A program made the translations under genes and the position numbers. DNA of 64,000 bases from a virus, in IMG/VR virus record IMGVR_UViG_3300027848_000009, positions 32,001-96,000 of that record, one strand, 5' to 3'. Below the pieces are notes generated by a model that was not told where the DNA came from, made no database searches, and saw only the letters and a list, made by a program, of their open reading frames with translations. This document shows, in pieces, positions 22,177 to 46,177 of this stretch (within the stretch, counting starts at the first letter, position 1; each line of letters starts with the position of its first letter).

Positions 22177-23844
22177 CTACAGGATTTTTTCTGATTTACC
22201 TTGCGGGGGATTTTGTTGGGCACTTTTCCAACGATTCCTTACATAGTTGGAACCGGTCGACCCAAAGAAGTCATCAAACGACTTGTCATCATTGATCTCA
22301 AAAGCACCATCTCGCGTACGCTTGGCAATGAGCGACGGTGGCTGAACACTATTGTTCCACAGGTAGAAGTCATCAAACATATTGGACGTAATCTGACGTG
22401 GAACAATAGGCTGCAACTCTCCAGCAATTTGGCTACCGAACCACCCCGGGAGAACCGGACCACCAGAAGCCTTATTTATTGCATTGCGAGAAGCTAAGCG
22501 TCGATCGGCCTCAGCGCCCGGAATGTAGACAAAGTGCCCAACCGTCGCGTAACCGTTGTTTCTCGCCCACTTCAGGTGCTCTGTCCGCTTACCCGTTCCG
22601 GTAACGACCACGTCCGTGCCCGCCTCACGGGCAGCATCCATCGCCCTGTCCGTGACGGCCCTCGAAGCAGGGTGAACTGCCGCAGCGCCACGACCACCGT
22701 CCCACCCCTCAAGTTGAGTCTTGATCCAGTCCGGATCAATGAAGGCAGCTGCATTGGACGCTGGAACATCCAGAGTCCCATCCTCGACAAGAGTGGTTTT
22801 TCCTGAGCCGGTTGTTCCGCCAACAAAATGTAGCGTCCTAGCGCCGCCCGGCTTGTTTCTGTGCTCAGGGGCGACCCGATTGATGATTTTAGATGTCGCT
22901 TCTCGGCCACCAGAACCGACCCTGCCGGACCTCATGCCTGAACGGAGTTCTCTATACTTATCTACCGTGTCGCCACTCAACGCCTTTCGGACGCTAGGGG
23001 GAGCCTCTGAGTACCAGCCGGGATCACTGGCGATCAGTTTCTCCCAAGACGCCGCTGACGACTTCTTCGTCTTCGTTGCTTTCTTGACCGCTTTCCCAAC
23101 TTTTCGTACCACTGCAGGTCGCTCGAAAGCTGTTGAGTCCTGAATCAGGCCGTCGTTGTCCCCATCGAGGGCCTTGGGGTCGTATGGCTGAGCGGAGCGG
23201 AGCGCCCTGCCGAGAGACTTGCCATACAACTCTTCGTTGAGAGAAACCTTGCGGCGCGGCTTTTTCTTACCGAGCCTGTCCTGCTCTTCTTCAAGGATTC
23301 GACGGGCCCTTTGACGTTCTAGCCGATCCCGGTATCTCCTGCCCAGCGCGGTCGATCCAGTGCGTCGAGCGTAATCGGTGATATTGCTACACGGTGTCCA
23401 TACTGTATTTCCGCCGGTGGAGCGGCGACGAGCTACCCCGATGCAGCCCATTTGGCGAGCACGCCTGCGGGCGGAGTTTATGTCAGTGAAAACGTCCTCG
23501 TCTCCATCGAATGGAATGGAGGACGCAGCTTTGCCTCCAACTGCTCCTGAAACAAGGCCGCCGCCAGACATTGTGTCGATTGCAATGACGCCACGCTCGC
23601 TGAGTTCTTCCCAGTTCTTTTTGTTCTTAGATTTCTTTTTGCGGCCCTTGCGTTCGCGAACGCTTTCGTAATCACGCATTCTAGAAAGGACAGACTTTTT
23701 TTCCTGTTCGTTTTCGAGACGCTCGTACTCTTCGTGGGTTTTGCAAGCCATCCACGTTCCGTTTGGGTGTTGATGAGCACCAGCACAGCCGAGTTCTTTG
23801 GCTCGGCGCAGAGCCGCTGCCCTGTTTGCGGTGTCTCCGGACAT
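22177..23844 (-). CDS. Head-module protein with C-terminal zeta-toxin-like P-loop kinase
   Basis: GGTTGSGKTT, IDPDWIK, VHPAS; two N-terminal GC..W..C modules; DGDNDG motif. Confidence 0.75.
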   Translation of the reverse strand: MSGDTANRAAALRRAKELGCAGAHQHPNGTWMACKTHEEYERLENEQEKKSVLSRMRDYESVRERKGRKKKSKNKKNWEELSERGVIAIDTMSGGGLVSGAVGGKAASSIPFDGDEDVFTDINSARRRARQMGCIGVARRRSTGGNTVWTPCSNITDYARRTGSTALGRRYRDRLERQRARRILEEEQDRLGKKKPRRKVSLNEELYGKSLGRALRSAQPYDPKALDGDNDGLIQDSTAFERPAVVRKVGKAVKKATKTKKSSAASWEKLIASDPGWYSEAPPSVRKALSGDTVDKYRELRSGMRSGRVGSGGREATSKIINRVAPEHRNKPGGARTLHFVGGTTGSGKTTLVEDGTLDVPASNAAAFIDPDWIKTQLEGWDGGRGAAAVHPASRAVTDRAMDAAREAGTDVVVTGTGKRTEHLKWARNNGYATVGHFVYIPGAEADRRLASRNAINKASGGPVLPGWFGSQIAGELQPIVPRQITSNMFDDFYLWNNSVQPPSLIAKRTRDGAFEINDDKSFDDFFGSTGSNYVRNRWKSAQQNPPQGKSEKIL

Positions 23845-23846
23845 GA

Positions 23847-24215
23847 TTAGGACTCGTTATAGTTGTAGTCCATCGAAAGACGAGCTACTTTCGGGTCGCT
23901 GATCTTCAGTTTCTCAAGTTTCGCTGCAGCCTTTTGAGCCTCAAAGGTCTCGTAGCCGTATCGCTTCCGGTACATCTCTGCTTCTTCAATTTGATCTTCG
24001 TAGTCTTCCCCAATGGCTGCGAACAAATCGTTATCTGGCGGATATGGCTTACCTGCCTCTCGTATTCGCATGATGAACTTTTGACGCATTTCTTGGTCAA
24101 TCGAAAAAGGCGGGTAGTCGATCGCGTGCGAGAAGCGTTTGTGGTAGTCACCGAACTTTTTGCGCTCCTCTACCTCCTCGTCGGTCAGATCAAGATCGTA
24201 GGTATTTACTGTCAT
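23847..24215 (-). CDS. Hypothetical protein (candidate immunity protein)
   Basis: Small gene tightly packed between two effector-like genes. Confidence 0.55.
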   Translation of the reverse strand: MTVNTYDLDLTDEEVEERKKFGDYHKRFSHAIDYPPFSIDQEMRQKFIMRIREAGKPYPPDNDLFAAIGEDYEDQIEEAEMYRKRYGYETFEAQKAAAKLEKLKISDPKVARLSMDYNYNES

Positions 24216-24217
24216 GG

Positions 24218-27200
24218 TTATCCTCTGGCTGCTTTGATCATTACTCTTGCTTCGATACCATCTATCGGCTGAGAGATATCAAGTACTGCGACCGTTCCGC
24301 GGTTATGGACAAGCACAACTTCGCCGTGATCGACGTAGTCGTATCCTAACATAGGGGCATAATAGCCAGCGTCGTGGGCGGACAATGACTGCATGTACCC
24401 CAGCGCATCCCACATTGGTTCGCGACGAGGGTCGTCTGGTTTCAACTTTGAATACTGATCAATCCATTGGTCATAAATTCTGCCCATATCTGACTGCTCA
24501 AGAAGTCCGGCAACTCCAAGACGAGTTTCTGCTTCTTTCAGACGTTTTGTTATTGCCGCCGCAGCGTTTGCTGGATCCTCATTTTTGAGAACATCGGTAC
24601 CCTGCTCAGAGATGAGCGATTCGACCTCTCTGGCCAACTTTTTGTGATCGTTCTGGATGTCATTGAGGTCTTTGCTGTCGATTCCGTTGCCGTCAGGATC
24701 AACGAATCCGACCATTCCCGTACCGTAAGCACCCCAGTGGCTACTCTTTTCTGAAGCCCAGTATTCTCCCACGCCGTAAGCACGAGCACCCTGACCCGGG
24801 ATGAAACGATCGTCGTCCTCCTTGTAGGAGTTGATGTAGCCGAGGGCCTTACTGTTCTCACGGCCGACGCCACGGTGGATGGGCGTCCATCCAGCATCAA
24901 TCAATGTTTCGAATTCGTTCTCCGATAGAAGCACCGGCTTACCGTTCATTTCCCCGTTCTCCCAAAGATTCAGGAGAAGATCGTCAAACGTTTCCTTGTC
25001 GATTTCGCCTTTGTCTCGCCCGATGATCCGAGTCTGAACAAAGGCGAGGAAGTCAATGAAATTGTCATCGACCTTCGGTTTTCCGCCTGCGTCACGGGCA
25101 AGTGGAGTTTTCTGACGTCGATCCTCGAACAGTTTGCGAATACTCTTCTCGGTACGCTCTCCACGCAACTTGCGTCGCGCCCTGCGGAGCAATCGCGCGA
25201 GCTTACGACGCGCCTTTTCGGTGGCAGCAATGTCGGACTGGGTGGCGGTACGACCGAGCAGAGAGTTCCGACGCATACGTCGGTTTTGGCGGCGCTGTTC
25301 GCGATCTGCATCGGGTTGCATGATGCGGTCGGCGAAGTCCCTCCGACGTTTGCCGGCCTTCTTCGCTGCCCTTTCGGAAATTGCACCCCCTACGGCGCTG
25401 GCACTTGATGAACGCTCATCGTTATAGAAGGTCGATTCCTGACCGAGGCCCACCGATGCCGCTGTTGGGACGTCCTTGTTTTCTTTGCGAGCGTCCGTCA
25501 TCACCCGCTTCTGCGTCGTGTCGTGGAGATGCTCCAGCATTGAGTAGTCGCCACGTAAGCGCATCTCGGCAAGAGTCTTGATGTCGTCTAGCTGCTTCCG
25601 CTTACTGGCGTAAACTTCGGGTGTGATTTCACCGTCTCCAAGACTTGAGTCAAGTGCTGACTGCAAAGTTTCCAGTAGGTCATTTTCCGGTACAATTTGA
25701 CGCATCTCGTCTGGCGTCATGCCGACTGTATATAGGCCGTCATCGAGCATGTTTTGACGAGCCCCATCGAGCGGGCCGTTTTTCGTGAGGTCGTAGAACA
25801 AGGCACCTTCTCGCGCCCTTGCTGCATCACGGACAGATGCTTTCTGAGCATCATTCAAGTTGCCCCAAACCTGACCGTCTCTGTCGTTGACCTTGGTTAT
25901 ACCAGCGACGCCTCCGCGTTTCTTCCGTGAGCGCATGCCGCCACCAAGGCCGCGTGTTGCAGTGACGTCCATTTGTGCTGCTTGGCGGTCGGCCCTATCA
26001 ATTCCTCTGTCGGGGGAAAAGCGGGGGGCCGCTTGGCGTGCTGAACGCATTCCATTTCCGGAGGGATCCTTTGGGGGTATCGAGTCGACCTTGCCGACCT
26101 TGCCGACACCACGATCCTTTCCGTTCTTCTTTGCGTTTCGTTCAAGATCGACGATTGCATCGCTGCCCCAGATCCGTCTGATCCAACGTTCGACATCGTG
26201 TTTTAAGGGCTTTCTGGGATTCCAATGCGTTCCCCGAAATAAAATACCTACTCCGATTTTTTCCTCGAACTTTGGGCTATTCGGTCCGGGCCACGTGCTG
26301 GTCACGTCGGTCCCCTGCTTCTTGGTCCAGTCGTACAGGCGGTCGGGAACAATAATTACCGACCCATTTCCGCCCGCATCGTGCAGAACAAAACCATTGG
26401 CCTCAAGCATTTTGAAGAAATTTTGGTCACCGGCCTCGATGCGTTTGTGTTGCGGACGTTTCGCCTCGCCGTTGAGGCCGAAGTAAAGTTCAACCGTCCG
26501 CTTGTTTGAGGTGTCGGTAATTTTGGGTAATTTTTCACTACTGACATTCGATGGATTGCCACTCGTTGGGTTCTTCGGGCTCTTCGGCGCCTTCGGCTTC
26601 TTCGGCCCCCTCCTTGATTGCAACCCGCTGATACTGCTAGAGCGACGCTCAGTCAGCGTGTCGAGAGTGTCATTCAGTATCTGAGAAAGACTAGAACGAT
26701 CCGAATTAGACATGCCATCCAAAGGCCCATCGAGTTCGAGTTGGCGCAGGGCTGCCCGGAGGCGCCCCATGAACTCTGCGTTCGAACCGTAAACACCCTT
26801 TCCATCGAGGACCGTAGCGGCTTCCACGACGGCACTACTAATTCCGTTATTCATTTGCGCGTAGCCACCAAAATTAACGTCGACGCCATCGAGTAGTTCC
26901 CGTACTTCTTTTCCGGTTGCGCGCTCCTTGGAAGGGCGCATGCCCTTCGATTTCCTTATCGATTCGAGACCAAGAGAGTCTTCGACACCACCACCGAATT
27001 CGTAGGTGTTGCCGCTGGGGGTTTCAACGAAAAGCGAATGGTGACCGCCACCGTAGTCGCCGCGGTTACCCCAACTTGCCTCTCGAAAATATTCGTATCT
27101 TGCACCTTTGAGAGGCCCCTTTGTGATGCGTCCACGAACGGTTTCGTCTTCTCCGGGTAGTTGTGCGTCCCAGCCGGTGCGGCGACGGGCTGGTGTGTAA

Positions 27201-29119
27201 TTGTTTGCGTTCTGCAAAATTTCGCCGGGGAATTCGCCGTAGAACTCTCGCACGTTTTCGAGAACTTCGTCGAAAACCATTTCCGTTTCATCGGGGTCAA
27301 ACCCGTCGCGCTCAGCCGTACGCCGCATGTAGTCGACGTTACGGTTGTGTGGGAAGATGTTGTCTGACTCACGTTGCTGCGTTGACCGTCTTCCTCGTAG
27401 GTCGCGTTGGAGTGCTCGCTGGCGACGAAGTTCGTCGGCGACAACCATTCCGTCGCGATAGTCGCCATCAAAATTATTGTCAACCCACTTTTCCCACTTT
27501 TGTGGAAACCATTGGTTTTCTATTTCGGTGGACGGGTCGATGCCGAGTTCGTCTCTAAGTTCTGCGAGGCGTTCATCCGTGGCGCTAATGTACGCGTCCA
27601 TCTCTTCGGGGGCTATGTCGTCAAGTGTGCGACGGCTACGAAGACCCGAGTACAGCTGGGCAATTTGGTCGTCGTCGAATCCAAGTTCGCGGAGACGCTC
27701 CTCGCGTCGATCCGCCATCCGCTTTATCCGTTCGGGGTCCTCAGGGATGATGTTGCCCTTAGAGTCTCGCTTGACTTGCCCGTCTGAGCGGGATAGGCGC
27801 TGTGAGCGCATACCGCCCGCCAGCAGCGGTTGCTCCCTGACCCACCGCTCCAACTCCGCGCCTGTCAGCAGCGGCCTATTTGGGTCCCTTGCCTCATCCG
27901 CTTCCATTTCCGCTAGCGATCGTCGAATTCCGGCGGCGGCGGCGGCGGCGAGCTTCTCGATCTCGTCGAACGGGAGGTCACCGGGGAGGTTGTCCCCGTA
28001 CTTCTCGGGGAGTCCGAGATTTGTCGGGTCGTCCCTGCGCCTCCGCGCCGTCTCCGCTCTCACCCCGGCGCCTCTGCGGGCCTCTTGTTCGGCTGTCAGA
28101 CCGAGGCTGCCGATTTTACCATCATCCCGTTGGCGCCGTTCGGAGCGACGGCCCTGAATCGATGAGCCATCAATGCGGCGAACCAAACTCGACTGATCCC
28201 CAAGCAGCTCCCGCAAGCGGTTCTCGTCGAGGGCCGCGGCCGGATTCCCGGCACGACGCTCCTTTTCGATTTCCATTGAATCGCCGTCAACAAGGGCGGA
28301 GACCCGTCGAGCCATATTCTTTGGGACAGTGAACCGTGGGATGATTGGACGTTCCATTCCGGGCACGCCCTCAAATACGATCCCGTCACTGTCCCCATCG
28401 ACCCGTCCGGTGATGTCAACGAAAGACATTCCTCGCGGTGCGGAACGAAGACCGCCTCCAACTTTTGGTCCAAGCGCTTTGACCTCTGGTTCGAATGGGC
28501 TCAGGCTGTATCCGCCGTGATTTAGGAGGGACTCAGATTTTGCTTTGAGTACTTCCTTGACTGTGCGGCGAAGAATCCCTGTTCCGTTCGCCATATTGGA
28601 AAGATCGCTACCTAGGTGCGGGTTATTGTCCCTCGACTTGAATCGCATTCCCTTGGTCTCGATTCCGAGACCATCAACCCGAACCTTGGCCATAACCGAC
28701 GAACGTGCGGTTTCGTTGAGCAGCGAGCGGACCTTGAATTCGACTGCGGTTTGGAAATGCTCGTCAGGGAAGAACGAGAGAGGGACGCCCGACATGTCGA
28801 GAATTTTGGTGTTCGCCCGAGTTTTAAATGAAGCCACGTGGACCATGTCATCTCGGTTTGGGAGCCTGACATCGAGATTCCCATCGATCATTTCGGCAAG
28901 AAGAGGCTCTTCCGACGCCGACAAGCCTCGGAAGGCGCCGACTTCGATCCCGTATGGGAGTTCGTCTTCGATGCTTTTTGTTTGGATGTCGTTATACGCT
29001 TCCGCCCATGCTTCGCCTTTCGCCGAAAGGCCATAACAGGTTTCAGCAACTTCATCTCGAACGACTAAGCCAAACAGCTTTCCCGAAATTTTGTCTTTTA
29101 CGATTGCGTACTGTTTCAC
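24218..29119 (-). CDS. 1633-aa multidomain protein with C-terminal ADP-ribosyltransferase-like domain
   Basis: IHRG..YGVGEYWA..GYDYV..VHNR at the C-terminus; DGDSDG motif; five G[LM]RS. Confidence 0.6.
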   Translation of the reverse strand: MKQYAIVKDKISGKLFGLVVRDEVAETCYGLSAKGEAWAEAYNDIQTKSIEDELPYGIEVGAFRGLSASEEPLLAEMIDGNLDVRLPNRDDMVHVASFKTRANTKILDMSGVPLSFFPDEHFQTAVEFKVRSLLNETARSSVMAKVRVDGLGIETKGMRFKSRDNNPHLGSDLSNMANGTGILRRTVKEVLKAKSESLLNHGGYSLSPFEPEVKALGPKVGGGLRSAPRGMSFVDITGRVDGDSDGIVFEGVPGMERPIIPRFTVPKNMARRVSALVDGDSMEIEKERRAGNPAAALDENRLRELLGDQSSLVRRIDGSSIQGRRSERRQRDDGKIGSLGLTAEQEARRGAGVRAETARRRRDDPTNLGLPEKYGDNLPGDLPFDEIEKLAAAAAAGIRRSLAEMEADEARDPNRPLLTGAELERWVREQPLLAGGMRSQRLSRSDGQVKRDSKGNIIPEDPERIKRMADRREERLRELGFDDDQIAQLYSGLRSRRTLDDIAPEEMDAYISATDERLAELRDELGIDPSTEIENQWFPQKWEKWVDNNFDGDYRDGMVVADELRRQRALQRDLRGRRSTQQRESDNIFPHNRNVDYMRRTAERDGFDPDETEMVFDEVLENVREFYGEFPGEILQNANNYTPARRRTGWDAQLPGEDETVRGRITKGPLKGARYEYFREASWGNRGDYGGGHHSLFVETPSGNTYEFGGGVEDSLGLESIRKSKGMRPSKERATGKEVRELLDGVDVNFGGYAQMNNGISSAVVEAATVLDGKGVYGSNAEFMGRLRAALRQLELDGPLDGMSNSDRSSLSQILNDTLDTLTERRSSSISGLQSRRGPKKPKAPKSPKNPTSGNPSNVSSEKLPKITDTSNKRTVELYFGLNGEAKRPQHKRIEAGDQNFFKMLEANGFVLHDAGGNGSVIIVPDRLYDWTKKQGTDVTSTWPGPNSPKFEEKIGVGILFRGTHWNPRKPLKHDVERWIRRIWGSDAIVDLERNAKKNGKDRGVGKVGKVDSIPPKDPSGNGMRSARQAAPRFSPDRGIDRADRQAAQMDVTATRGLGGGMRSRKKRGGVAGITKVNDRDGQVWGNLNDAQKASVRDAARAREGALFYDLTKNGPLDGARQNMLDDGLYTVGMTPDEMRQIVPENDLLETLQSALDSSLGDGEITPEVYASKRKQLDDIKTLAEMRLRGDYSMLEHLHDTTQKRVMTDARKENKDVPTAASVGLGQESTFYNDERSSSASAVGGAISERAAKKAGKRRRDFADRIMQPDADREQRRQNRRMRRNSLLGRTATQSDIAATEKARRKLARLLRRARRKLRGERTEKSIRKLFEDRRQKTPLARDAGGKPKVDDNFIDFLAFVQTRIIGRDKGEIDKETFDDLLLNLWENGEMNGKPVLLSENEFETLIDAGWTPIHRGVGRENSKALGYINSYKEDDDRFIPGQGARAYGVGEYWASEKSSHWGAYGTGMVGFVDPDGNGIDSKDLNDIQNDHKKLAREVESLISEQGTDVLKNEDPANAAAAITKRLKEAETRLGVAGLLEQSDMGRIYDQWIDQYSKLKPDDPRREPMWDALGYMQSLSAHDAGYYAPMLGYDYVDHGEVVLVHNRGTVAVLDISQPIDGIEARVMIKAARG

Positions 29120-31721: not shown

Positions 31722-31738
31722 GATACCTACAGTTTAGT

Positions 31739-32140
31739 TTATTCAGTGCCTTCTTCGGCGTTGGAACCCGAAGTCAACCGCTTGTGCCGCTCTTGTGATG
31801 CAATGCGTTCTTCGAGGGATCGAGTTGCTATAAGTTTTTTTGGGCGCTGCGATTTAGGTACATTTAGAAAACCGTACCTGAAACTGTTCCAAATCTGCTC
31901 ATCTGTCTCGTCCCTGAATAGATTGGTATGAGAAGTGTAAGAAATGTTGTAATCGTTATACATTTCTCGAATCAGAGTTATACGTTTTTCTGTATGCGGA
32001 TCGCTACCAAACTCAATTTTGCGGAAAGCACCAATAATTTGGTCGCGCGACAAAACCTTTTCGGCCTGCGATCGGGTCACGCCAAGCACTTTTTCCACTT
32101 TCTCGTTCCAGTCAATTAACCACTTTGGTTCTGAACCCAT
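31739..32140 (-). CDS. Hypothetical protein (candidate immunity protein)
   Basis: Small, more AT-rich gene directly after the zincin gene. Confidence 0.55.
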   Translation of the reverse strand: MGSEPKWLIDWNEKVEKVLGVTRSQAEKVLSRDQIIGAFRKIEFGSDPHTEKRITLIREMYNDYNISYTSHTNLFRDETDEQIWNSFRYGFLNVPKSQRPKKLIATRSLEERIASQERHKRLTSGSNAEEGTE

Positions 32141-37600: not shown

Positions 37601-39685
37601 CGACTTCCCATTCATCCACTCGATTTGCTGATCAATCAGATCACTGTCGATGACGCCCATTTTCTGAAGAGCACGAAGTTCGGTCATGCCCTCCATGAGC
37701 ATGACTGCAAGGGTGATCCCTGATTCTTGTCTGAGCGGGCCCTCTCCGTTTTCTCCCCAGAATTCCTTGACTTTGTCTTGGTAGTATTTACCGGACAGGA
37801 TGTGAAGCATGCTTCCTTCGAAGGCATGGATGCCGACGGGAGGAAAACCCTCCGGCAGGTATTCCGCTGGAAGGAGACCCTGTATGACGCTGTTCAATGC
37901 CTCCCCCCACTGCTCGTTACTCCACTGATCAGGTGGATCCGTCAAAGCCACCACCCCATTTTTACCCACCGCATAGGTGACACCACGATTGTTCCAATCG
38001 TCAATGACCAGTTTCTGAACAGCGGCGTACTGCTGCAGATGGCCCATTTCGTGGTAACCAATATGTCGCGCCTGCGCTTGGAGCGATCCATGCCGCGCGG
38101 CAGAAAGGTCAGACGCGTACCTGTCCTTCCAACGCTCTAGATCGATCTCGCCCTGAAAGAATTCTTGAAGCGCCTGCCATTGCTGACCCTCGCTGCCGGT
38201 TCCATCCGTTGAGACGATCCTGATCTTTCCGTCGTCCAGATAGAAGGCTCCATCATCATCGATCATTGGTCGCAGAACTTGGACGAGCGGGTTGACCTCC
38301 ATGGTCATGCCGAAACCAGTAGTGTTTTGGTAACTAATTGGAGAGAGTTCCGCTTCGGTCAACCAGTAATTTTCGAGATTCCCATTTTCGCGACCGGCAT
38401 CGTATGGCCTGAAAGTTATTTTTTTGAGGAGGCGCACTGATTCAGGGTCGTCATGGAACTCGTGGAGGATGGACTCAAGAGTCCCTCTGAGTACATCGTG
38501 ATGTCGATCAACGAGGATCTCCACCATCTTTGCCGCGTCCGCTGGGTCAACTGACGGATCAACGTAGTCGAGGTAATCCTGACGAAGCCTCGCATCCAGA
38601 TTCTGGAGATTCTCCAAAAGAGTTTTGTTCGGGTCGTAGACGGAATCTCCAAAAATGCCGGAGAACAAGCCTTCGAATTCGACATCCCACATGCCGTTGT
38701 TCCTCAGACCCAAAATGGTGTCCCACAAGTCTGCGTTTAGGTCGGTATCACCAGTTGCAGACACCATCTTTCGCAACGTGTCCAGCGCTGCATCTTTTTC
38801 CGCAAGCCGTTGATCGAAAACGCTTTTTGGGGCAAGCATCTGCGAGGCCGCTTCCATTGCGCGCCTGTTGGAAGCAAAACGCGGATCATCCGCATCAGCT
38901 TCCAGCATCTCCATGTACCGCCCCATCGCTACATGGTTGTTGAACCAACTACCTACACGACCAAGCCGTCGGATGGCGGATACTGGGGCCACGAAACAGT
39001 TGGTCCCGAACTCGTCCGTGAACTGGTTTGCTGCCGGAGTTCCGGGAGGACAACGGAATTTTCCTAGTTCGTCGACGATGACACCAATTGCTCTCGCTGA
39101 GCGGGAACCGAGACTGCCGCCGGGGACAACTGAGCCGATGCTCCTACCGAGAGCTTTCGTTTCCACTCCGTCAGGAAGAGACTTGACGTTTACCGTTCGC
39201 TTCGAATCTTCGATCCTTGCGCCAGTTCTTGGGTCCGCTTCGTATTCGTTGACAATAATTTTCGGCGTCTTTTTTTTGAAGGCAAGCGCCTCCATCATCC
39301 CCAATCGCCGCTCGTCTGGTCGAAGTTCCTTGGGGGGAGAAACCCACCCGAAGTTTGGTTCATCGCCCTTGCGGAGCATATCCTTTGCGGTCACATGCAA
39401 TTTTAGAACATCGCCGGGTTGACGCGTCTTGTTCGGCGCAAACCTTACTTCTGGTATGGTCTCCTTGACACCGGAACCGGCGGTCCTCTTCTGGGACTCC
39501 TTGTCGTTCCCGCCGACGGCGTCGCCGATGAGCGCTTTGACGGACCACTCTGCATCAATCTCTGATCTGGTGCTGGAGATTGCAGCGTGAATACGGAACT
39601 GTTGGCCTAGCCACTCGTAATCACGACGGTGGGTGCCTAAAACTCGTTCCGAATGTATATATCTGGTGGCTCGGGTTAGGGCCAT
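34643..39685 (-). CDS. 1680-aa polyvalent protein: zincin, degenerate VIP2-like ART and DUF3626-like regions
   Basis: GYHEMGH..EGMTE; IVVPKGSRG..LTLPPGSF; RPLIG..YG..VLRPEV..GD. Confidence 0.6.
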   Translation of the reverse strand: MALTRATRYIHSERVLGTHRRDYEWLGQQFRIHAAISSTRSEIDAEWSVKALIGDAVGGNDKESQKRTAGSGVKETIPEVRFAPNKTRQPGDVLKLHVTAKDMLRKGDEPNFGWVSPPKELRPDERRLGMMEALAFKKKTPKIIVNEYEADPRTGARIEDSKRTVNVKSLPDGVETKALGRSIGSVVPGGSLGSRSARAIGVIVDELGKFRCPPGTPAANQFTDEFGTNCFVAPVSAIRRLGRVGSWFNNHVAMGRYMEMLEADADDPRFASNRRAMEAASQMLAPKSVFDQRLAEKDAALDTLRKMVSATGDTDLNADLWDTILGLRNNGMWDVEFEGLFSGIFGDSVYDPNKTLLENLQNLDARLRQDYLDYVDPSVDPADAAKMVEILVDRHHDVLRGTLESILHEFHDDPESVRLLKKITFRPYDAGRENGNLENYWLTEAELSPISYQNTTGFGMTMEVNPLVQVLRPMIDDDGAFYLDDGKIRIVSTDGTGSEGQQWQALQEFFQGEIDLERWKDRYASDLSAARHGSLQAQARHIGYHEMGHLQQYAAVQKLVIDDWNNRGVTYAVGKNGVVALTDPPDQWSNEQWGEALNSVIQGLLPAEYLPEGFPPVGIHAFEGSMLHILSGKYYQDKVKEFWGENGEGPLRQESGITLAVMLMEGMTELRALQKMGVIDSDLIDQQIEWMNGKSDINSPVTPSGPPKWSPAPPGNTPPPTPPNIPATNPPNSPPGSPVPDDTELSIIPSEITWMVDKETGEILSTQGPWDLMERYFIARHGGRPDDKRGGNQEIPRKSIARTWGWPDVPYSQLGADGLDGRFKVLQTDADQLLERIDAGEQLDDDDTARLWMASKGMAQIADENARRRNASDKIRQERSSKFERNDSGKIFRKSKKPYKKNAGDDDEIYDDDRYRQAMIQTEQSIPGRYPDAPKSWTEDPAGHGSEQSMEAMRSMNNVEQAAMTKDLKERNKSYVHGGTDLEDAVKRAAEVRGQEVDNTGPHPSPSKEIAETILPVLDAMERNPVSETVEGYVIFDDGDDLIPIDTYIEAEDGRSFQLLLDGLRSKRSRGFVELQVVSSREESNIDYANSGNRTKIVVPKGSRGMWRENEDGENSKLTLPPGSFDVVEDVDGVQTMIPSRQESSSDFAGRLLGDMSEWGNPGSVAEMRERSDLERVLRGRQVEQPRHVRSHFSQDSAVRTKMIKRRNDMDRGFADNSIEPFNPDFSARDQTLDRSTATSMILTADRLADGDLSDNLRTADGREFSMTPETRDFIERSGSDAVTKKVAEAAEQWHEGVDRRVRSRVSSDELNDLLETGSPTRADRSMMMAEFERNNGWPTGAPPDSRPLIGHATHAVHDNIVDDLLERSGRGGFPALRRSGFFDHSGDSPHGPLSPYGESDIVLRPEVSMRSAYALGDILRDPAAMTRLNDTDPRRYASQLAVSRRGEGDTALRMGNLLHAGLTGDFRGVQMRDMPPEVEQNGMMTRLPRSFGSADIPMETAIAGGFDIADIERIDVPIDSLGWKRLELRRGDIDFQASGTAQNLKRAGWSDAEIDFLLESLSNGRLPNIKSANLLRQHRAANADRIRFDRAGVNVRYTNADGIDLFSRRDLTSSTDSGARIGRVRNVEEALLVRLDDEVSARQATLRPIVQQGMRNMRGSKSLDSHSPVYEAALREVGE

Positions 39686-39708
39686 TGGGACCCACTCTTT
39701 CCCGGCGC

Positions 39709-41061
39709 TCAGGCGAGACCGTCGACGTCGCCGTCCTCGTTGGTTAGCATTTCGAACTCCGCAATCGACTGCATGAACGCGGCATCAACGTCCGAAAGGA
39801 CATCTGCCTTCTTTGAGGCCGACCAGTTGGCGGGAAGCATGTCTTCCTTGCCCATTTCACGAGCGCGCTTCATGATGTGCTTCTTCGCCGTCTCCTTGTC
39901 GGCTGCGCGACCGTGGGCCATGATGGCGTTACGGAGATCGTCGACGTTGGAGATAGGGAACGAACCGTCAGACATGGCGAGGCCCTCTTTGGCCATCTCC
40001 TCACGCTGTTCCTCGTTGAAGGCGCGCTTGAGGGCGATCTCTGCGGCTTCCGCCTCGATTTCTTCTGCCTCGTCCGGCTCGTAAGCGTCGTATCCAAGAA
40101 CCTCGCCGTCGAGGGCGACGAACACGTCGTACGACTTTCCGTCAATTCCATCAATCTCGACTGCGTAGCAGTCAAAACCTTCGAAGGTGTCTGGTTCGAC
40201 CGCCATCACTGAACCATCGAGCCCGTCGAGGCTTTTCACTGCGATATCGCATGCCTCGGTGAAGCCGATAAGTTCCGTTTCCTCGTACAAAGACTTCTGC
40301 TCGAAAACTGAATCGTCGAGGCGATGGAAGGCGAGAACTTCGCCCGTAGTTCCTTCCATGTAGACCTCGATCGCTCGCCCATCCTTGACTTGAAGATCGA
40401 CGATGTAGACGTCGCTGCTCTGGGCGTAGCCGGAATCAATAACCGTTCCGTCGAACTCGGCCTCCGCTTTGCCTTCAATCTCGATGAGACCCGGCATCCC
40501 CTTCTCCGACATGCACCCGCCCGGGCAGTCGTCGCACATGCCGCTGCTTCCGGAGTAAACCTTGCGATCGATTGCGCAAAGGAATCCGGATTTACCGACG
40601 TTTGCTGTTTTCTTGCCCATCGTATTCAGGCGACGCTTGCGGGCATCACCCATCCAGCGCTTGGCGACGGGGGCGTCCTCTTCGTCTTCGTCGTCTTCGT
40701 CGTCTTCGTCGTCTACGGCGGTGTCGTCGTCGGTCTCGGGATCTGACTCGACGTCGGTGGCGTCTTCCTCGTCGGCCTCGGGATCAACGTCGGGGGCGTC
40801 CTCGTCTTCCTCTTCTTCGTCGTCAATTTCAGAGCCAACGGCGGCGAGTGCCTTTTCCACCAACTCGTCCTCGTCGTCGATTTCTTCCATTTCCTCATCG
40901 GAAACTGGAACCATCTTCATGGAAACGGGTATTGCTCCGCACTTTCCACAGACTTTCGCGCCCGCCGTGTATCCGCACTCATCTCCACTGAGACCTTTTG
41001 CGCACTTAAGAACACCACCGTCAGCGTCAATCTTGACAACTGCTTTCTCGTCGTAACTCAT
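39709..41061 (-). CDS. Acidic protein with PepSY-like repeats and a phage head-associated C-terminal domain
   Basis: AAGGAG RBS; Cys clusters; Y-x-V-E/D..GEVL twice; DGSFPISNVDDLRNAI..GRA..KKHI. Confidence 0.6.
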   Translation of the reverse strand: MSYDEKAVVKIDADGGVLKCAKGLSGDECGYTAGAKVCGKCGAIPVSMKMVPVSDEEMEEIDDEDELVEKALAAVGSEIDDEEEEDEDAPDVDPEADEEDATDVESDPETDDDTAVDDEDDEDDEDEEDAPVAKRWMGDARKRRLNTMGKKTANVGKSGFLCAIDRKVYSGSSGMCDDCPGGCMSEKGMPGLIEIEGKAEAEFDGTVIDSGYAQSSDVYIVDLQVKDGRAIEVYMEGTTGEVLAFHRLDDSVFEQKSLYEETELIGFTEACDIAVKSLDGLDGSVMAVEPDTFEGFDCYAVEIDGIDGKSYDVFVALDGEVLGYDAYEPDEAEEIEAEAAEIALKRAFNEEQREEMAKEGLAMSDGSFPISNVDDLRNAIMAHGRAADKETAKKHIMKRAREMGKEDMLPANWSASKKADVLSDVDAAFMQSIAEFEMLTNEDGDVDGLA

Positions 41062-41245
41062 CGTTGCTGGCTCCTTACAGTGCATGTTCTTGAGTAGACA
41101 ATCATTTTGAAAATACTACACCTTCACATGGCATCATAGCCTTAAGGCGTGGAGACCACGCAGAAGTATTTGGGGTAATTTTCACTAAGACCGTTTGTCA
41201 AATTGTACCCTAGATTGGTGTTGGTTGAGGGGAAAGCCCAAATAA

Positions 41246-44200
41246 TCAATTGTTCGGGATGCTGACAGTCCTTCCTTGAGAGTTTGTCCTCTCCTGTGTC
41301 CGGCTAGTTATTTCTTCAGTTGTCCCCGTTATGAATGTTCCCATCGCTGCTTCAGCAAAAATATCAAGGAGCCTCGTGAAAATGTCTACCCTTGATCCGC
41401 CTGTTTCCATTTGTCGATCGACCACGACCATGAGGGCGTCCATTATCTGGTCTACCTCGTCTTGGGTGACCGTAACTGTTCCGACGTTCGTCCTGCGGTC
41501 ACCAAGTTTTCCGGAGTCTTGACGGCCCATAATGCCCTGCAAGAGTCTAAGCGCGTCAGATGTTTGTCTGTCGCTGCTTGAGCGTGCTTCTCTAATTTCC
41601 TTGTCGAGAGAATCTTCAATCTTTTTGAAGAATGTTGCCTCTTCAATAATCTGGGTGCGACCCTTTTTCTCGGAGCGAAGGCCGCCAACGCTTCTCGAAT
41701 TCGCATATTCCTGAACAGATTCACTTGGCTTATAGTTGCGCATTGAGCGCATGCCAGCCTCTGAAAGGAAACGCGCAGCCCCCGTTCCGGTATTAGGGAT
41801 ATCGTCTTCATCAATCCCGCCGACCCGGAGGGCAGCGGCCGAGTCGCCCTGCTCGATGGCGCCATTACGTTGGTAGCCGTCGACCATCTCGCCAATAACC
41901 GTATTCAACGATCGTGCCGCTTGCATACTCGCAGACTCTTTTGCTGTGAGTTCCCTGCCTTGGAACTGCTCCATGTATTCATCGAGCGTGGCTTGCATTG
42001 ATTCGAGCATCGTCATCGTGACCTCGTCGCCCTCGTTGGTAAGATCAGAAAGAGCATCCCAAACCTCTTGATGATCCTCTGATGCATCACCGTCAGCAAC
42101 GGCGTCGGCGAGACGTGTTTGGTTCCCTGAGACACGTTTGTCAACTTTAGATAGATCCCGTTTGCGTTGTTCCGTCCATTGGGCCGGGGAGATTTCTGGC
42201 GACTGTTCCTCTGGAACTGCGTCTCCAGTGGGCTGTTCGGGTGGAGCGGATGGACTTGGTGCTGGCGGAGTATTGGCCAATTCCTGAGTGATTTGACGTC
42301 GCCGAGACTGGCGTTCTTCCCTGCGCTCCTGCTCCTCTATCTTCTTGCCTATTTCTGTGGAAAGGCGCCGGAAATCGACTTCCTTCATGCCGCTCTTCTT
42401 GGGAGAATAAAAAGCATAGAGTTCGTCAAACTGCTGATCTGGGGGTAGTTCATCCCATCCTTCGGGTTTGATTTCTTCCCACTTTTTGCCCACATTTTGG
42501 CTGTTTGCAATTCTGGTACCCATTGGGCGCCCGGGCCGGTTGGCTGTTTCTGCTACAGCCGACGAACGCTCCTCCGGGCCGGGTCGCTTACTGGAACGGA
42601 GACCGCTTCCGCGCGCCGACTGCGCTCCGTCAAGAATTGACCACCCCTTGGGGGAGATGTCGTCAACTTCTAGACCAGCAAACCGATCCCTGATGGGCGG
42701 CTCGGATTCAGACTGGCCCCATTCCAGAAGGCTGGACATGTTGCGCTTTGTCATGCCGGGAGGTGTTGGTCTTTTACCAGCAAAACCACCGCCCTTCTTG
42801 AGATTGGGTGATTCGTATGTCCCATTTGGCGACAGGGCGGCAAAGTCGATTATGTCTTTTGCCGCACGCATGGGGGCTGGGACTTCGCTGGACTCGTTCC
42901 GCTTTGCGTACTCGTTGAACCCTGACTGAATTCTTTGAGCCAAATCTTGAGGCATCTTTTCAGAGTTGCCTTGGAGCCATTTGTCGAGTTCGGAAAACGC
43001 TGTAATTCCCTGAGCATTTTTCTGCTCCCGTTCCAATGAGCGACGAATGTCGCCGCGCTCATCAGCGTTGAGTTTCAGGGAGACGCCGTTTTCTGGAATC
43101 CGAGAGTTGCTCCGGGGTCCCATGGAGTTCATTTTCTGACGGTCCGGGTCGAGATTGCCGTCAACCCATTTTCCGTTCCTTGCTCCACCCTTCATCCGTG
43201 AAAGAAAGTCCGACAGTTCAAGGATGGAACCCGAATCATCGTCGCCAATGCGAGAGTTCAGGGTGTCGATAGCAATCTGCAAATTTGAACGATCAATTAT
43301 CGACGGTCCTGTTTTGGGGTCGATCTGAGATGCGAGCGATCGCAGCGTATCTGCTACCGGTCGGTCAAGTGATGCGTTGTCGACAAAATCCTGAAGCGTC
43401 TCAGCGTAGGAGATACGATCACGTGCAGGCGCCGCCAATTCGATCTGATCGCTGTTCTTCCGCGACCTCATTCCACGTCCACGATTTTTCCGAGTAAACC
43501 ACTCTGCCGCCTCGTTCACTCCGTCGCGAAGTTTTTTGCTTTTATCTCTAGTGCTGTAAGGGCTATTGTTTGCGGCGCCGGTCAAGGTTGGTTGTTGGAC
43601 GAATTCTCTCGCCTCGTCAGCCGACGGGATTCTTTCATTGATCCAACTGATGTCCTCTTCAAGAATGGACCGCTCGACTCGATTGTCATCAAGATCGTTG
43701 ATCGCCTCAAGCGTCTGATCCATGTAGTAGGCGTAGTCGCCCTCTTCGATCACGTCGGCGTCGAAGTTGTCTTTTAGCCACTTTTCTGCCGCCGCCTCCG
43801 GATTACTTGAGTTGCGGATCTCATCAAGTTCATATTTGTTCATTGACAGAGAGCGAGTAGCGGAACGCAGTTGATCGCGCATATCGCTTTCGTCTTTATT
43901 CAGATCACTGAGTTTCTCCTCGACCTGCTCTGCGTAATCAGCCAAGTCGTCAACGTGATTGCTGATTGAAGAAATTCGATCTTCGGATTCCCCAAGTTCG
44001 GACAAGTCGTCTAGGAACCATGATTCGTAATTATCTGAAAGGCGTTGAGCGTCTTCTGGGGTGAACTTGTCTGCTCCACCCAATCGATTTGCCAATATGG
44101 CTGTCGCCAGTTCCGTATTGGAACGACCTTGTTCTGTTTCAAGAATAGACATTGCCCATAAGTCGTCGTACGACTTTCCGGCACGCTTCTTCATGGCTTC

Positions 44201-46177
44201 GACTTGTGAAGAAACGATCTCTTTAGCTTCGTCAAGCTCGTCCTTGATTTCGGCGAAATCCATTTTTTCAAGACGATTCTTATATGTGTTTTTACGCATA
44301 GACCGAAGACCTTCATCTCCGGTTCCAGTGTTTGCGGATGGCGCCTGCGGAAGGTTCGGTAACTTTGGTGTTGACGGCGTGGCTGGGCGCTCAAAGGGCG
44401 AGCCCTCCTGAACCAAGCCATCGTTGTCGCCGTCTATTGCGTTTGGATCGAACCGTTGCGTTACGGCCCGCAGGGACCTAAGTGCTTTTTTTGAACCACC
44501 CCCAAAGATGTTCTTGCTGGCATTATAGATTGCCTGCATGAACTCTTCGGTTGTCCCTGAGAGCACTTTGATTCCGTGCTCGGTCACCTCGACTTCGGTT
44601 TTGTGATACTCGAAGATTGGATCGAGGGCTTCTTTGACCCTGAAAACCTGCGAGGGGTCGCACTCAATGATGACGTTTTGCTGTTCCTCATTGAAACCCG
44701 ACATTTCTGACATGTATTCGAGTGACTTCTCGTCGTCGTCGTGATGCTTCTCTCGCTGACGGAAAATGTCGGCCATCGTCGGCTCGGGCGTTTCCTGAGC
44801 GTAAGCCCTACTCGTGGAATGATTCGGCTTTGTCCGCATAGAGATCGCTGGCATCCGGGGAGGGACAACGGCACTCATGGGCTGGAAGGTCATCTGAGGA
44901 ACGACCCTTTCCGGCTTTCCGAACATGTACTGCTGCGTTTCCCGGTCCCAATGATACGGAAGGCGGTAGTACTTCTTCATTCCTTCTTTCATCTTCGCAA
45001 AGACGACGAGGTTCCCGGTTGCGGTCATCAATTGGATTGGAGCCTGAACCCGTGAAGCGATCTCTATTTCAAGAGAATTTCGCTTTTCTGGGCTAAGAGG
45101 CTGAGCCGCTCCGTCGGAGAAGATGTCACGATTCGGTTCCGGCTTCCTTGCCGAAATCATCTGCATCATCATGTGATTCTTCTCGGAGACATCCGTGATC
45201 TCGTCATCAAAATCGATTTCGTCGCCCCAGACGCTCTTCACTTGCTCAAGTACGTGATCGAGAGCAATTTCCTCAAACTCTTCCTCGAAAAATGATTCGT
45301 AATCAGAGAAATCGAACTCTTGTTTCCATTCAGCATCTTTTTTCTTTGAGCTTTCGTAGCGCTCAAGGAGTCGGCGACCCTTTGCGGCAAGTTTTGCGGC
45401 ATCGCTACGGTCCTGAGGGGATGGTTCTCCCCATGCTGCAGCAGAAAGCGCTAGTCGGGTCGGCTTGCCGTCCGGTTTCTTCATTGGGCCCGAAGGATTC
45501 GTGAAGAATCGCGTCAAGAAAGAGCCCTTCCTGCACATCTTCTGCGGCGTGTTTGCGGCTCCGCGAACTCCCGGCTTCAGGTTTGCGCCATCCGTCTGAG
45601 CGAAGTGACTGCGCCCCTCGGCGGTCAGACCACCCTCAGGGTCTTTGAGTTTGGCTTGCTTGATTGAGATCGTTCCAGTCAACTGGTTCGCTCCGTGGAG
45701 AACCGGGCTGACCTCGTAAAGTTCGACTTCCTTTAGGACGTTCGCCTGCTTTGAAGGGTCGAAAACTGCGTCGAGCGTTTTGTATCCAATTGACCATTCC
45801 TGCTCAAGGCCGAAGAATTGGACATTGGAAAACGCCTCGCGACCTTTTTCTGAGTTCAGGTTGAACTGAACCTTCGCGTACAGTCCGCCAATTCCTGCCC
45901 TTTTCATCTTTTCTGGGAGACGAGGGTCGGAGGCTGGAACCTCATAAATCTCAAGGATTTTCCCGATTGGGTCGTTCCAGTTGTGTCCCCATACGACGCG
46001 CGGCTTCCTGCGCTTCAGGCTTCCGTCGAACACTCCGGGTGCGCAAATATCACCGACGGAGTCCTTGTTGCCGATTCCGGCGACGAAACACTCCACGATG
46101 CCCTTGGCATCATTTACGGAAACTTGACCGGCGGGTGCCGCTTTGAACTCGATATCATCGAATTGTGAATCAGGCAT
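41246..46177 (-). CDS. HK97-type prohead protease fused to a ~1450-aa extension
   Basis: GNKDSVGD, WGHNWNDPIG, EWSIGY, LYEVSPVLHGAN in the first ~170 aa. Confidence 0.85.
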   Translation of the reverse strand: MPDSQFDDIEFKAAPAGQVSVNDAKGIVECFVAGIGNKDSVGDICAPGVFDGSLKRRKPRVVWGHNWNDPIGKILEIYEVPASDPRLPEKMKRAGIGGLYAKVQFNLNSEKGREAFSNVQFFGLEQEWSIGYKTLDAVFDPSKQANVLKEVELYEVSPVLHGANQLTGTISIKQAKLKDPEGGLTAEGRSHFAQTDGANLKPGVRGAANTPQKMCRKGSFLTRFFTNPSGPMKKPDGKPTRLALSAAAWGEPSPQDRSDAAKLAAKGRRLLERYESSKKKDAEWKQEFDFSDYESFFEEEFEEIALDHVLEQVKSVWGDEIDFDDEITDVSEKNHMMMQMISARKPEPNRDIFSDGAAQPLSPEKRNSLEIEIASRVQAPIQLMTATGNLVVFAKMKEGMKKYYRLPYHWDRETQQYMFGKPERVVPQMTFQPMSAVVPPRMPAISMRTKPNHSTSRAYAQETPEPTMADIFRQREKHHDDDEKSLEYMSEMSGFNEEQQNVIIECDPSQVFRVKEALDPIFEYHKTEVEVTEHGIKVLSGTTEEFMQAIYNASKNIFGGGSKKALRSLRAVTQRFDPNAIDGDNDGLVQEGSPFERPATPSTPKLPNLPQAPSANTGTGDEGLRSMRKNTYKNRLEKMDFAEIKDELDEAKEIVSSQVEAMKKRAGKSYDDLWAMSILETEQGRSNTELATAILANRLGGADKFTPEDAQRLSDNYESWFLDDLSELGESEDRISSISNHVDDLADYAEQVEEKLSDLNKDESDMRDQLRSATRSLSMNKYELDEIRNSSNPEAAAEKWLKDNFDADVIEEGDYAYYMDQTLEAINDLDDNRVERSILEEDISWINERIPSADEAREFVQQPTLTGAANNSPYSTRDKSKKLRDGVNEAAEWFTRKNRGRGMRSRKNSDQIELAAPARDRISYAETLQDFVDNASLDRPVADTLRSLASQIDPKTGPSIIDRSNLQIAIDTLNSRIGDDDSGSILELSDFLSRMKGGARNGKWVDGNLDPDRQKMNSMGPRSNSRIPENGVSLKLNADERGDIRRSLEREQKNAQGITAFSELDKWLQGNSEKMPQDLAQRIQSGFNEYAKRNESSEVPAPMRAAKDIIDFAALSPNGTYESPNLKKGGGFAGKRPTPPGMTKRNMSSLLEWGQSESEPPIRDRFAGLEVDDISPKGWSILDGAQSARGSGLRSSKRPGPEERSSAVAETANRPGRPMGTRIANSQNVGKKWEEIKPEGWDELPPDQQFDELYAFYSPKKSGMKEVDFRRLSTEIGKKIEEQERREERQSRRRQITQELANTPPAPSPSAPPEQPTGDAVPEEQSPEISPAQWTEQRKRDLSKVDKRVSGNQTRLADAVADGDASEDHQEVWDALSDLTNEGDEVTMTMLESMQATLDEYMEQFQGRELTAKESASMQAARSLNTVIGEMVDGYQRNGAIEQGDSAAALRVGGIDEDDIPNTGTGAARFLSEAGMRSMRNYKPSESVQEYANSRSVGGLRSEKKGRTQIIEEATFFKKIEDSLDKEIREARSSSDRQTSDALRLLQGIMGRQDSGKLGDRRTNVGTVTVTQDEVDQIMDALMVVVDRQMETGGSRVDIFTRLLDIFAEAAMGTFITGTTEEITSRTQERTNSQGRTVSIPNN

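Follow-up and report, generated by a model that had tools for sequence, protein, structure and literature searches.

The polyvalent proteins of phages offer a published parallel to the locus described here. Their packaging into the capsid, processing and injection are, for most members, predictions (Iyer, Burroughs, Anand, de Souza and Aravind 2017, PMC5512222). We analyzed a 64,000-nucleotide stretch of DNA, hereafter the window, which comprises bases 32001-96000 of virus record IMGVR_UViG_3300027848_000009 (155,887 bp in total); coordinates are window positions unless given as genome positions. Ten genes of the window, g1 to g10, lie between the genes for the portal and the major capsid protein, and several of their products are giants in which one short peptide word recurs. 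Like polyvalent proteins, these are giant multi-domain proteins among the virion late genes, and effector domains are shuffled between relatives. The relatives also hold the hallmark ArdC-N and MPTase-PolyVal domains, plus zeta kinase, NUDIX, helicase and exonuclease domains. For polyvalent proteins, however, MuF or portal fusions were proposed as the anchor and MPTase as the processor, whereas here the anchor would be an N-terminal S78 protease and there is no MuF. The giants of the present phage genome (G000) match no PolyVal family of Pfam, and MPTase is missing from G000 and from two relatives, G001 and G004. The locus also has a defined, lineage-specific peptide word, while no cleavage motif was found in the paper on polyvalent proteins (PMC5512222), in which 'protease' occurs once in the text.

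Prohead proteases of the T4 and phiKZ/SPN3US types recognize a short consensus at which they cleave numerous internal head proteins; these reach the prohead by way of propeptides and, once processed, are ejected into the host (PMC10052503). In T4 (IPI-III, Alt; gp21) and in phiKZ/SPN3US (gp175/gp245, AXE motif), a protease of the same clan as ours cuts cargo, the capsid protein and itself, and the present locus may work in a like manner. The substrates in those phages are mostly single proteins that lose an N-terminal propeptide, whereas here they would be multi-module chains with 5-20 internal sites. The consensus there (x-E) is stable across distant phages, but the word described here differs between close lineages. 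The T4 and phiKZ proteases are not fused to cargo, and cleavage has been measured there; here it is predicted from sequence.

An N-terminal clan protease in a longer assembly protein is likewise found in the herpesvirus assemblin-scaffold (pUL26-type) and in HK97-like fusions such as gp30 of Gordonia phage ChisanaKitsune. Those fusions release themselves at defined sites, and their C-terminal tail binds the capsid protein. In contrast, the extension here consists of 1400-4500 amino acids (aa) of enzyme modules, and the capsid-binding tail would lie on a separate protein. MuF-fused polymorphic toxins of temperate phages and SPP1 gp7 represent another route, in which effectors such as zeta-like kinases and ADP-ribosyltransferases (ARTs) ride a head-assembly protein into the capsid and are delivered with the DNA. 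Unlike these, the block and the phage part of the record contain no MuF, and there are several cargo genes with many motif-punctuated modules per chain. The Dar system of P1 (DarA, DarB, DdrA/B, Hdf, Ulx) also has several large head-loaded proteins, some of them proteolytically processed, that are injected to protect DNA. The Dar proteins are unrelated to those described here, and they have no protease fusion, recurrent inter-module word or portal-capsid placement.

A literature search turned up no published description of a protease carrier with multi-gene cargo and a lineage-specific punctuation word. New relative to published systems are the protease as carrier, the lack of MuF or (in G000) PolyVal hallmarks, the multi-gene cargo, and the lineage-specific word. 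We propose that the block encodes MuF-independent, head-internal cargo of polyvalent-type polyproteins, which would be cut at the word, most likely by the prohead protease, and ejected; in our judgment the case for this proposal as a whole is evenly balanced. If it is true, at least 7,000 enzyme residues per genome would be carried pre-made into each new host, organized like the polyproteins of RNA viruses, and virion cargo would be a major, rapidly shuffled arm of phage counter-defense in freshwater actinobacteria. The prohead protease would join MuF and the portal as a carrier of injected effectors. The recurrent words predict every cut site, which makes processing of polyvalent proteins directly testable.

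The portal-to-capsid block and its recurrent word

An earlier note on this DNA, drawn up without database searches, had described ten tightly packed, co-oriented genes between portal and capsid, and the map of open reading frames (ORFs) together with the Pfam borders bears this out. Ten minus-strand ORFs occupy 22177-46204 with gaps or overlaps of -10 to +160 bp, flanked by a Phage_portal gene and an HK97-type Phage_capsid gene (Table 1). The order is portal, S78 protease fused to g1, scaffold-like g2, cargo genes, capsid. The first giant protein, g1, would be 1643 aa if read from the ATG at 46177, and the note had overlooked the prohead protease at its start. In addition to Peptidase_S78, the domain matches phrog_80 (E 6.5e-29) and TIGR01543 (47.6 bits, under the equivalog cut-off of 59). 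We take the motifs WGHNW (aa 72) and WSIGY (aa 137), neither of which varies among 24 distinct sequences, to hold the catalytic His and Ser. The g1 N-terminus is common to more than 1500 protein clusters of 455-2000 aa.

The g1 protease is 40% identical to the N-terminus of the 501-aa ChisanaKitsune protease protein gp30. The tail of g2 (aa 332-423, window 39817-40092) matches the C-terminus of the same protein at 45% identity (E 4e-21), and g2 is kept in all relatives at 45-80%. Because the two phage proteins match opposite ends of gp30, an ancestral protease-scaffold gene has seemingly been split. One polyprotein is fused to the prohead protease, which provides a plausible route into the prohead.

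The word G[ML]RS occurs 12 times in g1, g3, g8 and g10, whereas 2000 shuffles gave 0.38 copies on average and never more than 4. Just three further copies were found in ORFs of at least 150 aa in all six frames of the 156-kb record. Two longer modules are also shared within the block. A module of about 45 residues, DGDxDG..F.RP, has at its end an Excalibur/EF-hand-like DxDxDG loop and F-x-R-P; it is present in g1, g4, g8 and g10 and nowhere else in the record, and g1 aa 566-609 and g10 aa 206-245 are 50% identical over it (E ~1e-7, within-block BLAST). The second, RCPxG..FTD..C, is found only in g3 and g7 of the record and is invariant in both families across six genomes. The observation in the earlier note that otherwise unrelated bodies have short motifs in common is therefore confirmed. 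These two modules are the only candidates, from sequence comparison, for loading of cargo other than g1.

To place the block among its relatives, we compared G000 with five genomes, G001 to G005, whose whole portal-to-capsid interval was fetched. Three of the five are complete with terminal repeats, G001 and G004 among them. In IMG/VR, 435 relatives of the capsid protein are 70-89% identical to it, while the nearest cultured capsids, from Gordonia, Brevibacterium and Streptomyces phages, are 36-58% identical. The family is a large uncultured group of ~140-kb lake phages, probably of freshwater actinobacteria. A homologue of the protease head (P0133) is found on a 134,991-bp contig with the NCBI label of an Ilumatobacteraceae metagenome-assembled genome; this is maybe a binned phage and gives a host lead (freshwater Acidimicrobiia). 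The portal is 55-77% identical to those of the five relatives, in all of which the portal-to-capsid interval spans 22-35 kb, and the block is kept in hundreds of related metagenomic phages. Its conserved backbone consists of the portal, protease head, g2, the zincin part of g3, g6, g7, the g10 N-terminus and the capsid protein.

Between the backbone genes lie highly variable giants of up to 3987, 4736 and 3462 aa. One relative's giant combines S78, five KTSC domains, ArdC-N and MPTase-PolyVal. The 4736-aa protein of G005 has S78, sigma-70 region 4, KTSC, UvrD helicase, RNase T, ArdC-N and MPTase-PolyVal, and the 3462-aa protein of G004 has DUF3721, NUDIX, a helix-turn-helix (HTH), DnaJ and zeta toxin. 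MPTase-PolyVal is present in G003 and G005 (E 2e-38 and 2.4e-44) and not in G001, G002 or G004; a six-frame search of G000 gave no match to PF18818 (MPTase-PolyVal) or PF18760 (ART-PolyVal) at E <= 1. Modules change carriers between genomes. In G000-G002 the zeta kinase makes up the C-terminal end of g10, in G004 it is buried deep in the 3462-aa protein, and G003 and G005 lack it. The DUF6321 domain is joined to the protease in some genomes and has a gene of its own in others (in G003, a 282-aa gene just upstream of the capsid gene). In some relatives an ORF with the C-part of the protease plus DUF6321 lies downstream of the capsid gene, so the head module is rearranged between lineages. Domain content, whose invariance among relatives would have counted against the reading of the earlier note, is heavily shuffled across related contigs and is of the effector (polyvalent-protein) type.

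De novo k-mer enrichment showed that every lineage has its own recurrent word, or dialect, in the giants. The words are G[ML]RS in G000-G002, (P)LGSR(S) in G003 (17-21 copies), R-[FLM]-SSG in G005 (23 copies) and ISGRM(G) in G004 (13-15 copies), with G[LFM]AS and GPVG in further loci. About 50 related loci have one word apiece to the exclusion of the others (G[ML]RS, G[LFM]AS, [FLM]SSG, LGSR, ISGRM, GPVG). Upstream of the g8 C-terminal module, a region that could be aligned in 18 relatives carries positionally homologous GMRS, GMRA, GLAS, GFAS, GMAS and GLQS, each followed by Arg. The common core of the aligned sites is thus G-hydrophobic-x-S-R, and the dialect is mainly the third residue. Among the six genomes, codons at every motif position vary synonymously, which shows that it is the peptide that is selected and rules out a DNA-level origin of the motif as a recombination or restriction site. 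The sites also respect domain borders: none of 47 falls inside a Pfam envelope, a result equaled by random placement in 1 of 20,000 trials, and sites lie 8-50 aa from the edges of helicase, RNase T, ArdC-N plus MPTase, KTSC and zeta domains. A helicase at aa 1914-2519, for example, is bracketed by sites at 1891 and 2544, and an RNase T domain at 3181-3368 by sites at 3136 and 3418. Peptide-level selection, conserved positions and placement between domains together support the view that the proteins behave as punctuated polyproteins.

The sites occupy basic, Gly/Ser/Arg-enriched interdomain segments, which would also suit multivalent docking or flexible-linker elements that bind, for example, scaffold, the capsid interior or DNA, with the giants packaged and ejected uncut. 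Large virion proteins can be packaged unprocessed, as is the N4 virion RNA polymerase (PMC5512222), and cleavage at the motif is so far a prediction. We nevertheless consider uncut giants improbable. A pure linker needs no fixed word of four to six residues under purifying selection with synonymous turnover, nor would it be expected to stay in place among relatives while just its third residue varies. Chains of 3500-4700 aa are also unlikely to pass the tail channel in one piece. Sites of herpesvirus assemblin and T4 gp21 follow a hydrophobic-x-small logic, and the word resembles this site logic of the protease clan.

Our proposal of head-internal cargo draws on the position of the block between scaffold-like and capsid genes, the protease-headed chain, and domains of the invasion-effector type. 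The succession of events would be as follows. After an ancestral protease-scaffold gene was split, the S78 protease headed g1 and the former C-terminal tail remained on the separate g2. The products of g1, g3, g4, g8 and g10 would be co-assembled into the procapsid, g1 by way of its protease head and the others perhaps through the short DGDxDG..F.RP and RCPxG..FTD..C modules. The chains would then be cut within the procapsid at G-[ML]-R-S sites (family core G-hydrophobic-x-S-R), most likely by the prohead protease, whose probable capsid site, Y-K-S, has the same hydrophobic-basic-Ser form. Freed modules, among them the zeta kinase, the lethal-factor-like zincin and the ART-like domain, would stay in the head, be ejected with the DNA and act early in infection; those of relatives would include ArdC-N plus MPTase, a helicase, an exonuclease, and NUDIX, DnaJ and sigma-like HTH domains. 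That the products are packaged into virions and delivered to the host is deduced from where the genes lie and by analogy with polyvalent proteins and the internal proteins of T4 and phiKZ; cleavage and the choice of cutter are likewise inferences.

The absence of MuF, claimed in the earlier note, holds in that neither the ten block proteins nor the portal match PF04233, and this supports its interpretation of a MuF-independent system. The sole six-frame match in the record lies at genome 9664-10023, in a foreign segment of 62% GC.

It is possible that the giants are instead late intracellular enzymes for counter-defense, host takeover or assembly, processed in the cytoplasm and merely encoded in the head operon. 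The helicase, exonuclease, NUDIX and DnaJ domains could work in the producing cell, and hhalign found no packaging signal among the cargo N-termini. In related Gordonia phages, too, genes of non-structural appearance (RNA ligase, lysin B) occupy the portal-protease interval. On the other hand, one polyprotein is covalently headed by the prohead protease, an enzyme active inside procapsids, and the block sits between scaffold-like and capsid genes in hundreds of genomes. The domain set (ArdC-N plus MPTase, zeta kinase, ART-like, sigma-like HTH) fits the class of invasion effectors, and late timing suits enzymes required at the next infection. We therefore find a purely intracellular role very improbable.

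The two nearest cultured relatives, Gordonia phages ChisanaKitsune (6445-18319) and GMA6 (7692-15311), have ~8-12 kb of extra genes between portal and protease. These include RNA ligase, a VIP2-like ART toxin, a 970-aa 'HNH endonuclease' and lysin B, and neither phage has a recurrent motif. Perhaps these extra genes represent the cargo region in simpler form, in phages that can be cultured.

Candidate cutting enzymes

Homology of the capsid protein to capsid proteins that have no delta domain starts at aa 96-98, which places the probable maturation junction at Y97-K98-S99 by sequence comparison. The junction reads hydrophobic-[KE]-[ST] in the six genomes and [YF]-K-S in the G[ML]RS lineages. 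The [YF]-K-S form resembles the hydrophobic-basic-Ser order of G-[ML]-R-S, and this likeness and the fusion of the protease in cis to cargo are the points in favor of the prohead protease as cutter.

Several observations weigh against cutting of packaged cargo by this protease. In G003, G004 and G005 the capsid junction shares only the hydrophobic-x-S/T core with the dialects, and the full dialect word was not found there. The catalytic domain is near-invariant, being 75-90% identical across all dialects with invariant catalytic neighborhoods, and it is therefore a poor fit with a strictly dialect-specific enzyme. Only protease aa 102, 152 and 158 track dialect, and this is inseparable from phylogeny. 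Dialect motifs in the tape measure proteins of some relatives are a weak hint that cutting may occur outside the capsid. Pairwise hhalign detected no N-terminal targeting domain shared by g3, g4, g5, g7, g8, g9 and g10 (probabilities <= 1.3%). Lastly, no cultured phage carries g8 or g10, as tblastn of both against 50,697 cultured phage records gave no match. A conserved protease that reads the shared core would reconcile the facts about the enzyme, yet it would not account for a word so uniform within each genome.

As regards the tape measure, a tape-measure-like, Gly/Ala-rich protein of 1375 aa (L173; genome 95302-99429, plus strand; window 63302-64000 and beyond) has one GLRS at aa 858-861. 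Its homologues have two perfect RLSSG in G005, one GMRS in G002 and none in G003, and the single GLRS of G000 is absent in G001. We rejected a conserved tape-measure site as proof of cutting outside the capsid, the motif positions not being homologous.

Two other enzymes were considered and set aside. G000 and the complete genomes G001 and G004 lack MPTase-PolyVal but have sites; since sites persist without it, it is not the general cutter. The zeta kinase might have been the reader of a Ser-containing word, but G003 and G005 have no kinase and still carry 21-23 sites.

The zincin of g3 is a candidate no less available than the prohead protease. Its H, E, H, G and Y residues (HExxH, G403, Y405) are invariant in 18 homologues, and it is found in all six genomes, with the downstream G.Y and a Glu-rich helix conserved. 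An AlphaFold2 (AF2) model of the domain has a mean predicted local distance difference test (pLDDT) score of 67. Of known structures, the model is most like the lethal factor catalytic domain of anthrax (Z 7.4 over 184 aligned residues), with Pro-Pro endopeptidases (PPEP-3, Z 5.4) and thermolysin-type enzymes next; lethal factor and the Pro-Pro endopeptidases are M34-type gluzincins. The domain had no sequence-profile match to any PDB chain, and Foldseek against PDB gave nothing at E <= 0.001. On the strength of the model, which supports it moderately, the g3 zincin is probably a sequence-specific gluzincin.

The same packaged polyproteins could accordingly be cut by this lethal-factor/Pro-Pro-endopeptidase-like zincin, either in the procapsid, in the cytoplasm before assembly, or in the new host. 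The enzyme is present in every lineage, its two best structural matches are both sequence-specific endopeptidases, and Iyer et al. 2017 (PMC5512222) proposed a zincin as processor of polyvalent proteins. It evolves fast, with ~25% identity between dialect groups as opposed to 39-41% within one, while S78 is almost invariant. The zincin module itself is free of sites, which follow it in every lineage, and some tape measure proteins, outside the capsid, carry dialect motifs. However, a Z of 7.4 is moderate for a model of such pLDDT, co-variation of zincin and dialect is inseparable from phylogeny, and the enzyme might just as well act on host proteins as an effector. Motifs in the tape measure proteins are not positionally conserved, and a core common to all dialects along with a matching capsid junction needs no fast-evolving enzyme. 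We therefore regard the zincin as a doubtful cutter, although it is the alternative to the prohead protease that we take most seriously.

A bolder form of the proposal is a modular packaging grammar, in which any enzyme module can be added to the protease or to a small number of carrier proteins and is released by a private lineage word that co-evolves with its reader enzyme. Co-evolution would act through S78 aa 102/152/158 or through the fast zincin, and co-infecting relatives could not process each other's cargo. We offer both parts of this idea as speculation that is unlikely to hold in full. If it were true, the locus would hold natural orthogonal protease/site pairs and a new MuF-independent route of effector delivery; the dialect set could supply such pairs as tools.

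Effector-like modules and neighboring features

Searches of the G000 giants with Pfam, PHROGs and NCBIfam gave almost nothing besides S78, DUF6321, DUF3721 and Zeta. What can be recognized in G000 is S78 with DUF6321, the zeta kinase, the pair of HExxH motifs and the ART-like fold. Searching PDB by sequence and by profile with g3, g8 and two homologue alignments yielded nothing usable.

The zeta-like kinase named in the earlier note is readily recognized in g10 by its Zeta_toxin score and a Walker A motif, GSGKT, at aa 346. Its homologue in G004 (E 1.9e-20) lies inside the 3462-aa protein between two of that lineage's dialect sites. In 75 of 80 related loci g10 is the immediate upstream neighbor of the capsid gene. 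Its N-terminus has a DUF3721 unit at aa 6-37 (window 23734-23829; G-C-x-G..W..C; Pfam E 1.8e-12), and inspection by eye suggests a second stretch similar to DUF3721 (aa 123-158). In G004 the 3462-aa protein likewise starts with a DUF3721 unit (E 0.0029, below cut-off).

In g8 the N- and C-terminal modules are conserved and the middle is variable. An AF2 model of the C-terminal 384 residues (pLDDT 85) was matched in a wide structural search to more than a dozen ART toxins and PARP domains, though only at Z 3.5-4.7, and a protein atlas lead to ART-PolyVal clusters scored 0.88. Invariant R167-G168 and G-x-G-E-Y are compatible with an ART. No Pfam match was obtained in 20 homologues, and Foldseek against PDB gave nothing at E <= 0.001. 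An ART-like identity of this module is plausible from the model; the ART-like regions of the earlier note thus survive weakly for g8 aa 1250-1633, while its other ART labels failed.

Both HExxH zincins predicted in that note are borne out as motifs, HEMGH at aa 545 of g3 and HEMTH at aa 433 of g4. Homologues of g4 were found only in G001 and G002 of the six-genome comparison. We discarded the idea that the g4 zincin is a diverged MPTase-PolyVal, as hhalign aligned the HExxH stretch alone. A DUF3626-like region did not hold up: g3 aa ~1388-1426 scores 10.4 bits against a cut-off of 27 (PF12294), and none of 15 homologues match. A separate protein of G004 scores 24.6 bits to DUF3626.

For the backbone protein g7, 664 homologues were obtained at E <= 0.001; the 120 of them that were listed bear neither a name nor a Pfam domain. 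The kinase-like fold previously suggested has a counterpart in a weak protein-atlas structure lead for the C-terminal ~250 aa of g7 (HipA-like), which we treat as a lead and not as an assignment. An atlas structure lead from g7 to MuF clusters is also weak (TM 0.32-0.34). The Cys/His-rich g6 gave no family match in Pfam or other family profile libraries.

Table 1. Positions of the genes, domains and short motifs of the block, with its two bordering genes
Feature	Window position	Strand	Remarks
Portal protein, 665 aa, ~280-aa C-terminal extension	46276..48273	-	Phage_portal E 3.9e-49; upstream border of the block
g1, 1652 aa, protease-headed polyprotein, five G[ML]RS sites (aa 632, 911, 1201, 1484, 1508)	41246..46204	-	
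HK97-family prohead protease domain, g1 aa 36-179	45668..46099	-	Peptidase_S78 (PF04586) 42.9 bits, cut-off 21
DUF6321 domain, g1 aa 187-258	45431..45646	-	Pfam E 4.1e-26
g2, 458 aa, scaffold-like, N-terminal Cys cluster, acidic tract	39709..41085	-	No G[ML]RS site
g3, 1680 aa, N-terminal ~1060 aa with RCP motif and zincin, GLRS at aa 1063, then variable C-terminal module	34643..39685	-	
Modelled zincin segment, g3 aa 230-700, HEMGH at aa 545	37586..38998	-	
g4, 832 aa, DGD module at aa 164, variant site GMAS at aa 213, HEMTH at aa 433	32148..34646	-	
g5, 133 aa, small variable protein	31739..32140	-	
g6, 216 aa, Cys/His-rich backbone protein	31071..31721	-	59-84% identity in 5/5 relatives
g7, 654 aa, backbone protein with RCP motif	29116..31080	-	37-62% identity in all relatives
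g8, 1633 aa, G[ML]RS at aa 223, 436, 492, 1023, 1061, GLQS at aa 832	24218..29119	-	
g8 C-terminal module, aa 1250-1633, candidate ADP-ribosyltransferase fold with helical insert	24221..25372	-	
g9, 122 aa, small variable protein	23847..24215	-	
g10, 555 aa, conserved N-terminus aa 1-194, DGD module at aa 227, GMRS at aa 303, zeta kinase	22177..23844	-	
Zeta-toxin-like P-loop kinase, g10 aa 331-455	22480..22854	-	Zeta_toxin (PF06414) 37.3 bits, cut-off 22.3
Major capsid protein, 441 aa, N-terminal delta-like domain	20740..22065	-	Phage_capsid E 2.5e-45
GLRS, g1 aa 632	44300..44311	-	
GMRS, g1 aa 911	43463..43474	-	
GLRS, g1 aa 1201	42593..42604	-	
GMRS, g1 aa 1484	41744..41755	-	
GLRS, g1 aa 1508	41672..41683	-	Ahead of conserved 145-aa C-terminal piece
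GLRS, g3 aa 1063	36488..36499	-	
GLRS, g8 aa 223	28442..28453	-	Within DGD module
GMRS, g8 aa 436	27803..27814	-	
GLRS, g8 aa 492	27635..27646	-	
GMRS, g8 aa 1023	26042..26053	-	Aligned with dialect variants in relatives
GMRS, g8 aa 1061	25928..25939	-	Positional homologues in 17 relatives
GMRS, g10 aa 303	22927..22938	-	28 aa before zeta kinase domain
DGD module core, g1	44378..44434	-	
DGD module core, g4	34101..34157	-	
DGD module core, g8	28343..28399	-	
DGD module core, g10	23110..23166	-	
RCPxG..FTD..C motif, g3	38996..39052	-	Invariant in g3 family of six genomes
RCPxG..FTD..C motif, g7	30640..30696	-	Invariant in g7 family of six genomes

The first ~43 kb of the record (genome 1-~43500, window 1-~11500) have a GC content of 60-63%, compared with ~52% in the remainder. 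Window 1-10000 was without a match in the three complete relatives, where window 12000-20000 was matched. Because of the high GC and the lack of matches for the 10 kb sampled, the segment reads as foreign to the phage, and it is probably either the product of a chimera of two phages or a foreign flank or neighboring element. On the far side of the portal, the large terminase gene (810 aa, 48555-50987, plus strand) is divergent from the block and has a LAGLIDADG/Hom_end intein-type insert at ~aa 285-350. Directly downstream of the capsid gene, a 120-aa SNase-like protein (20110-20472, minus strand, E 2.2e-10) is kept in 56 of 80 related loci.

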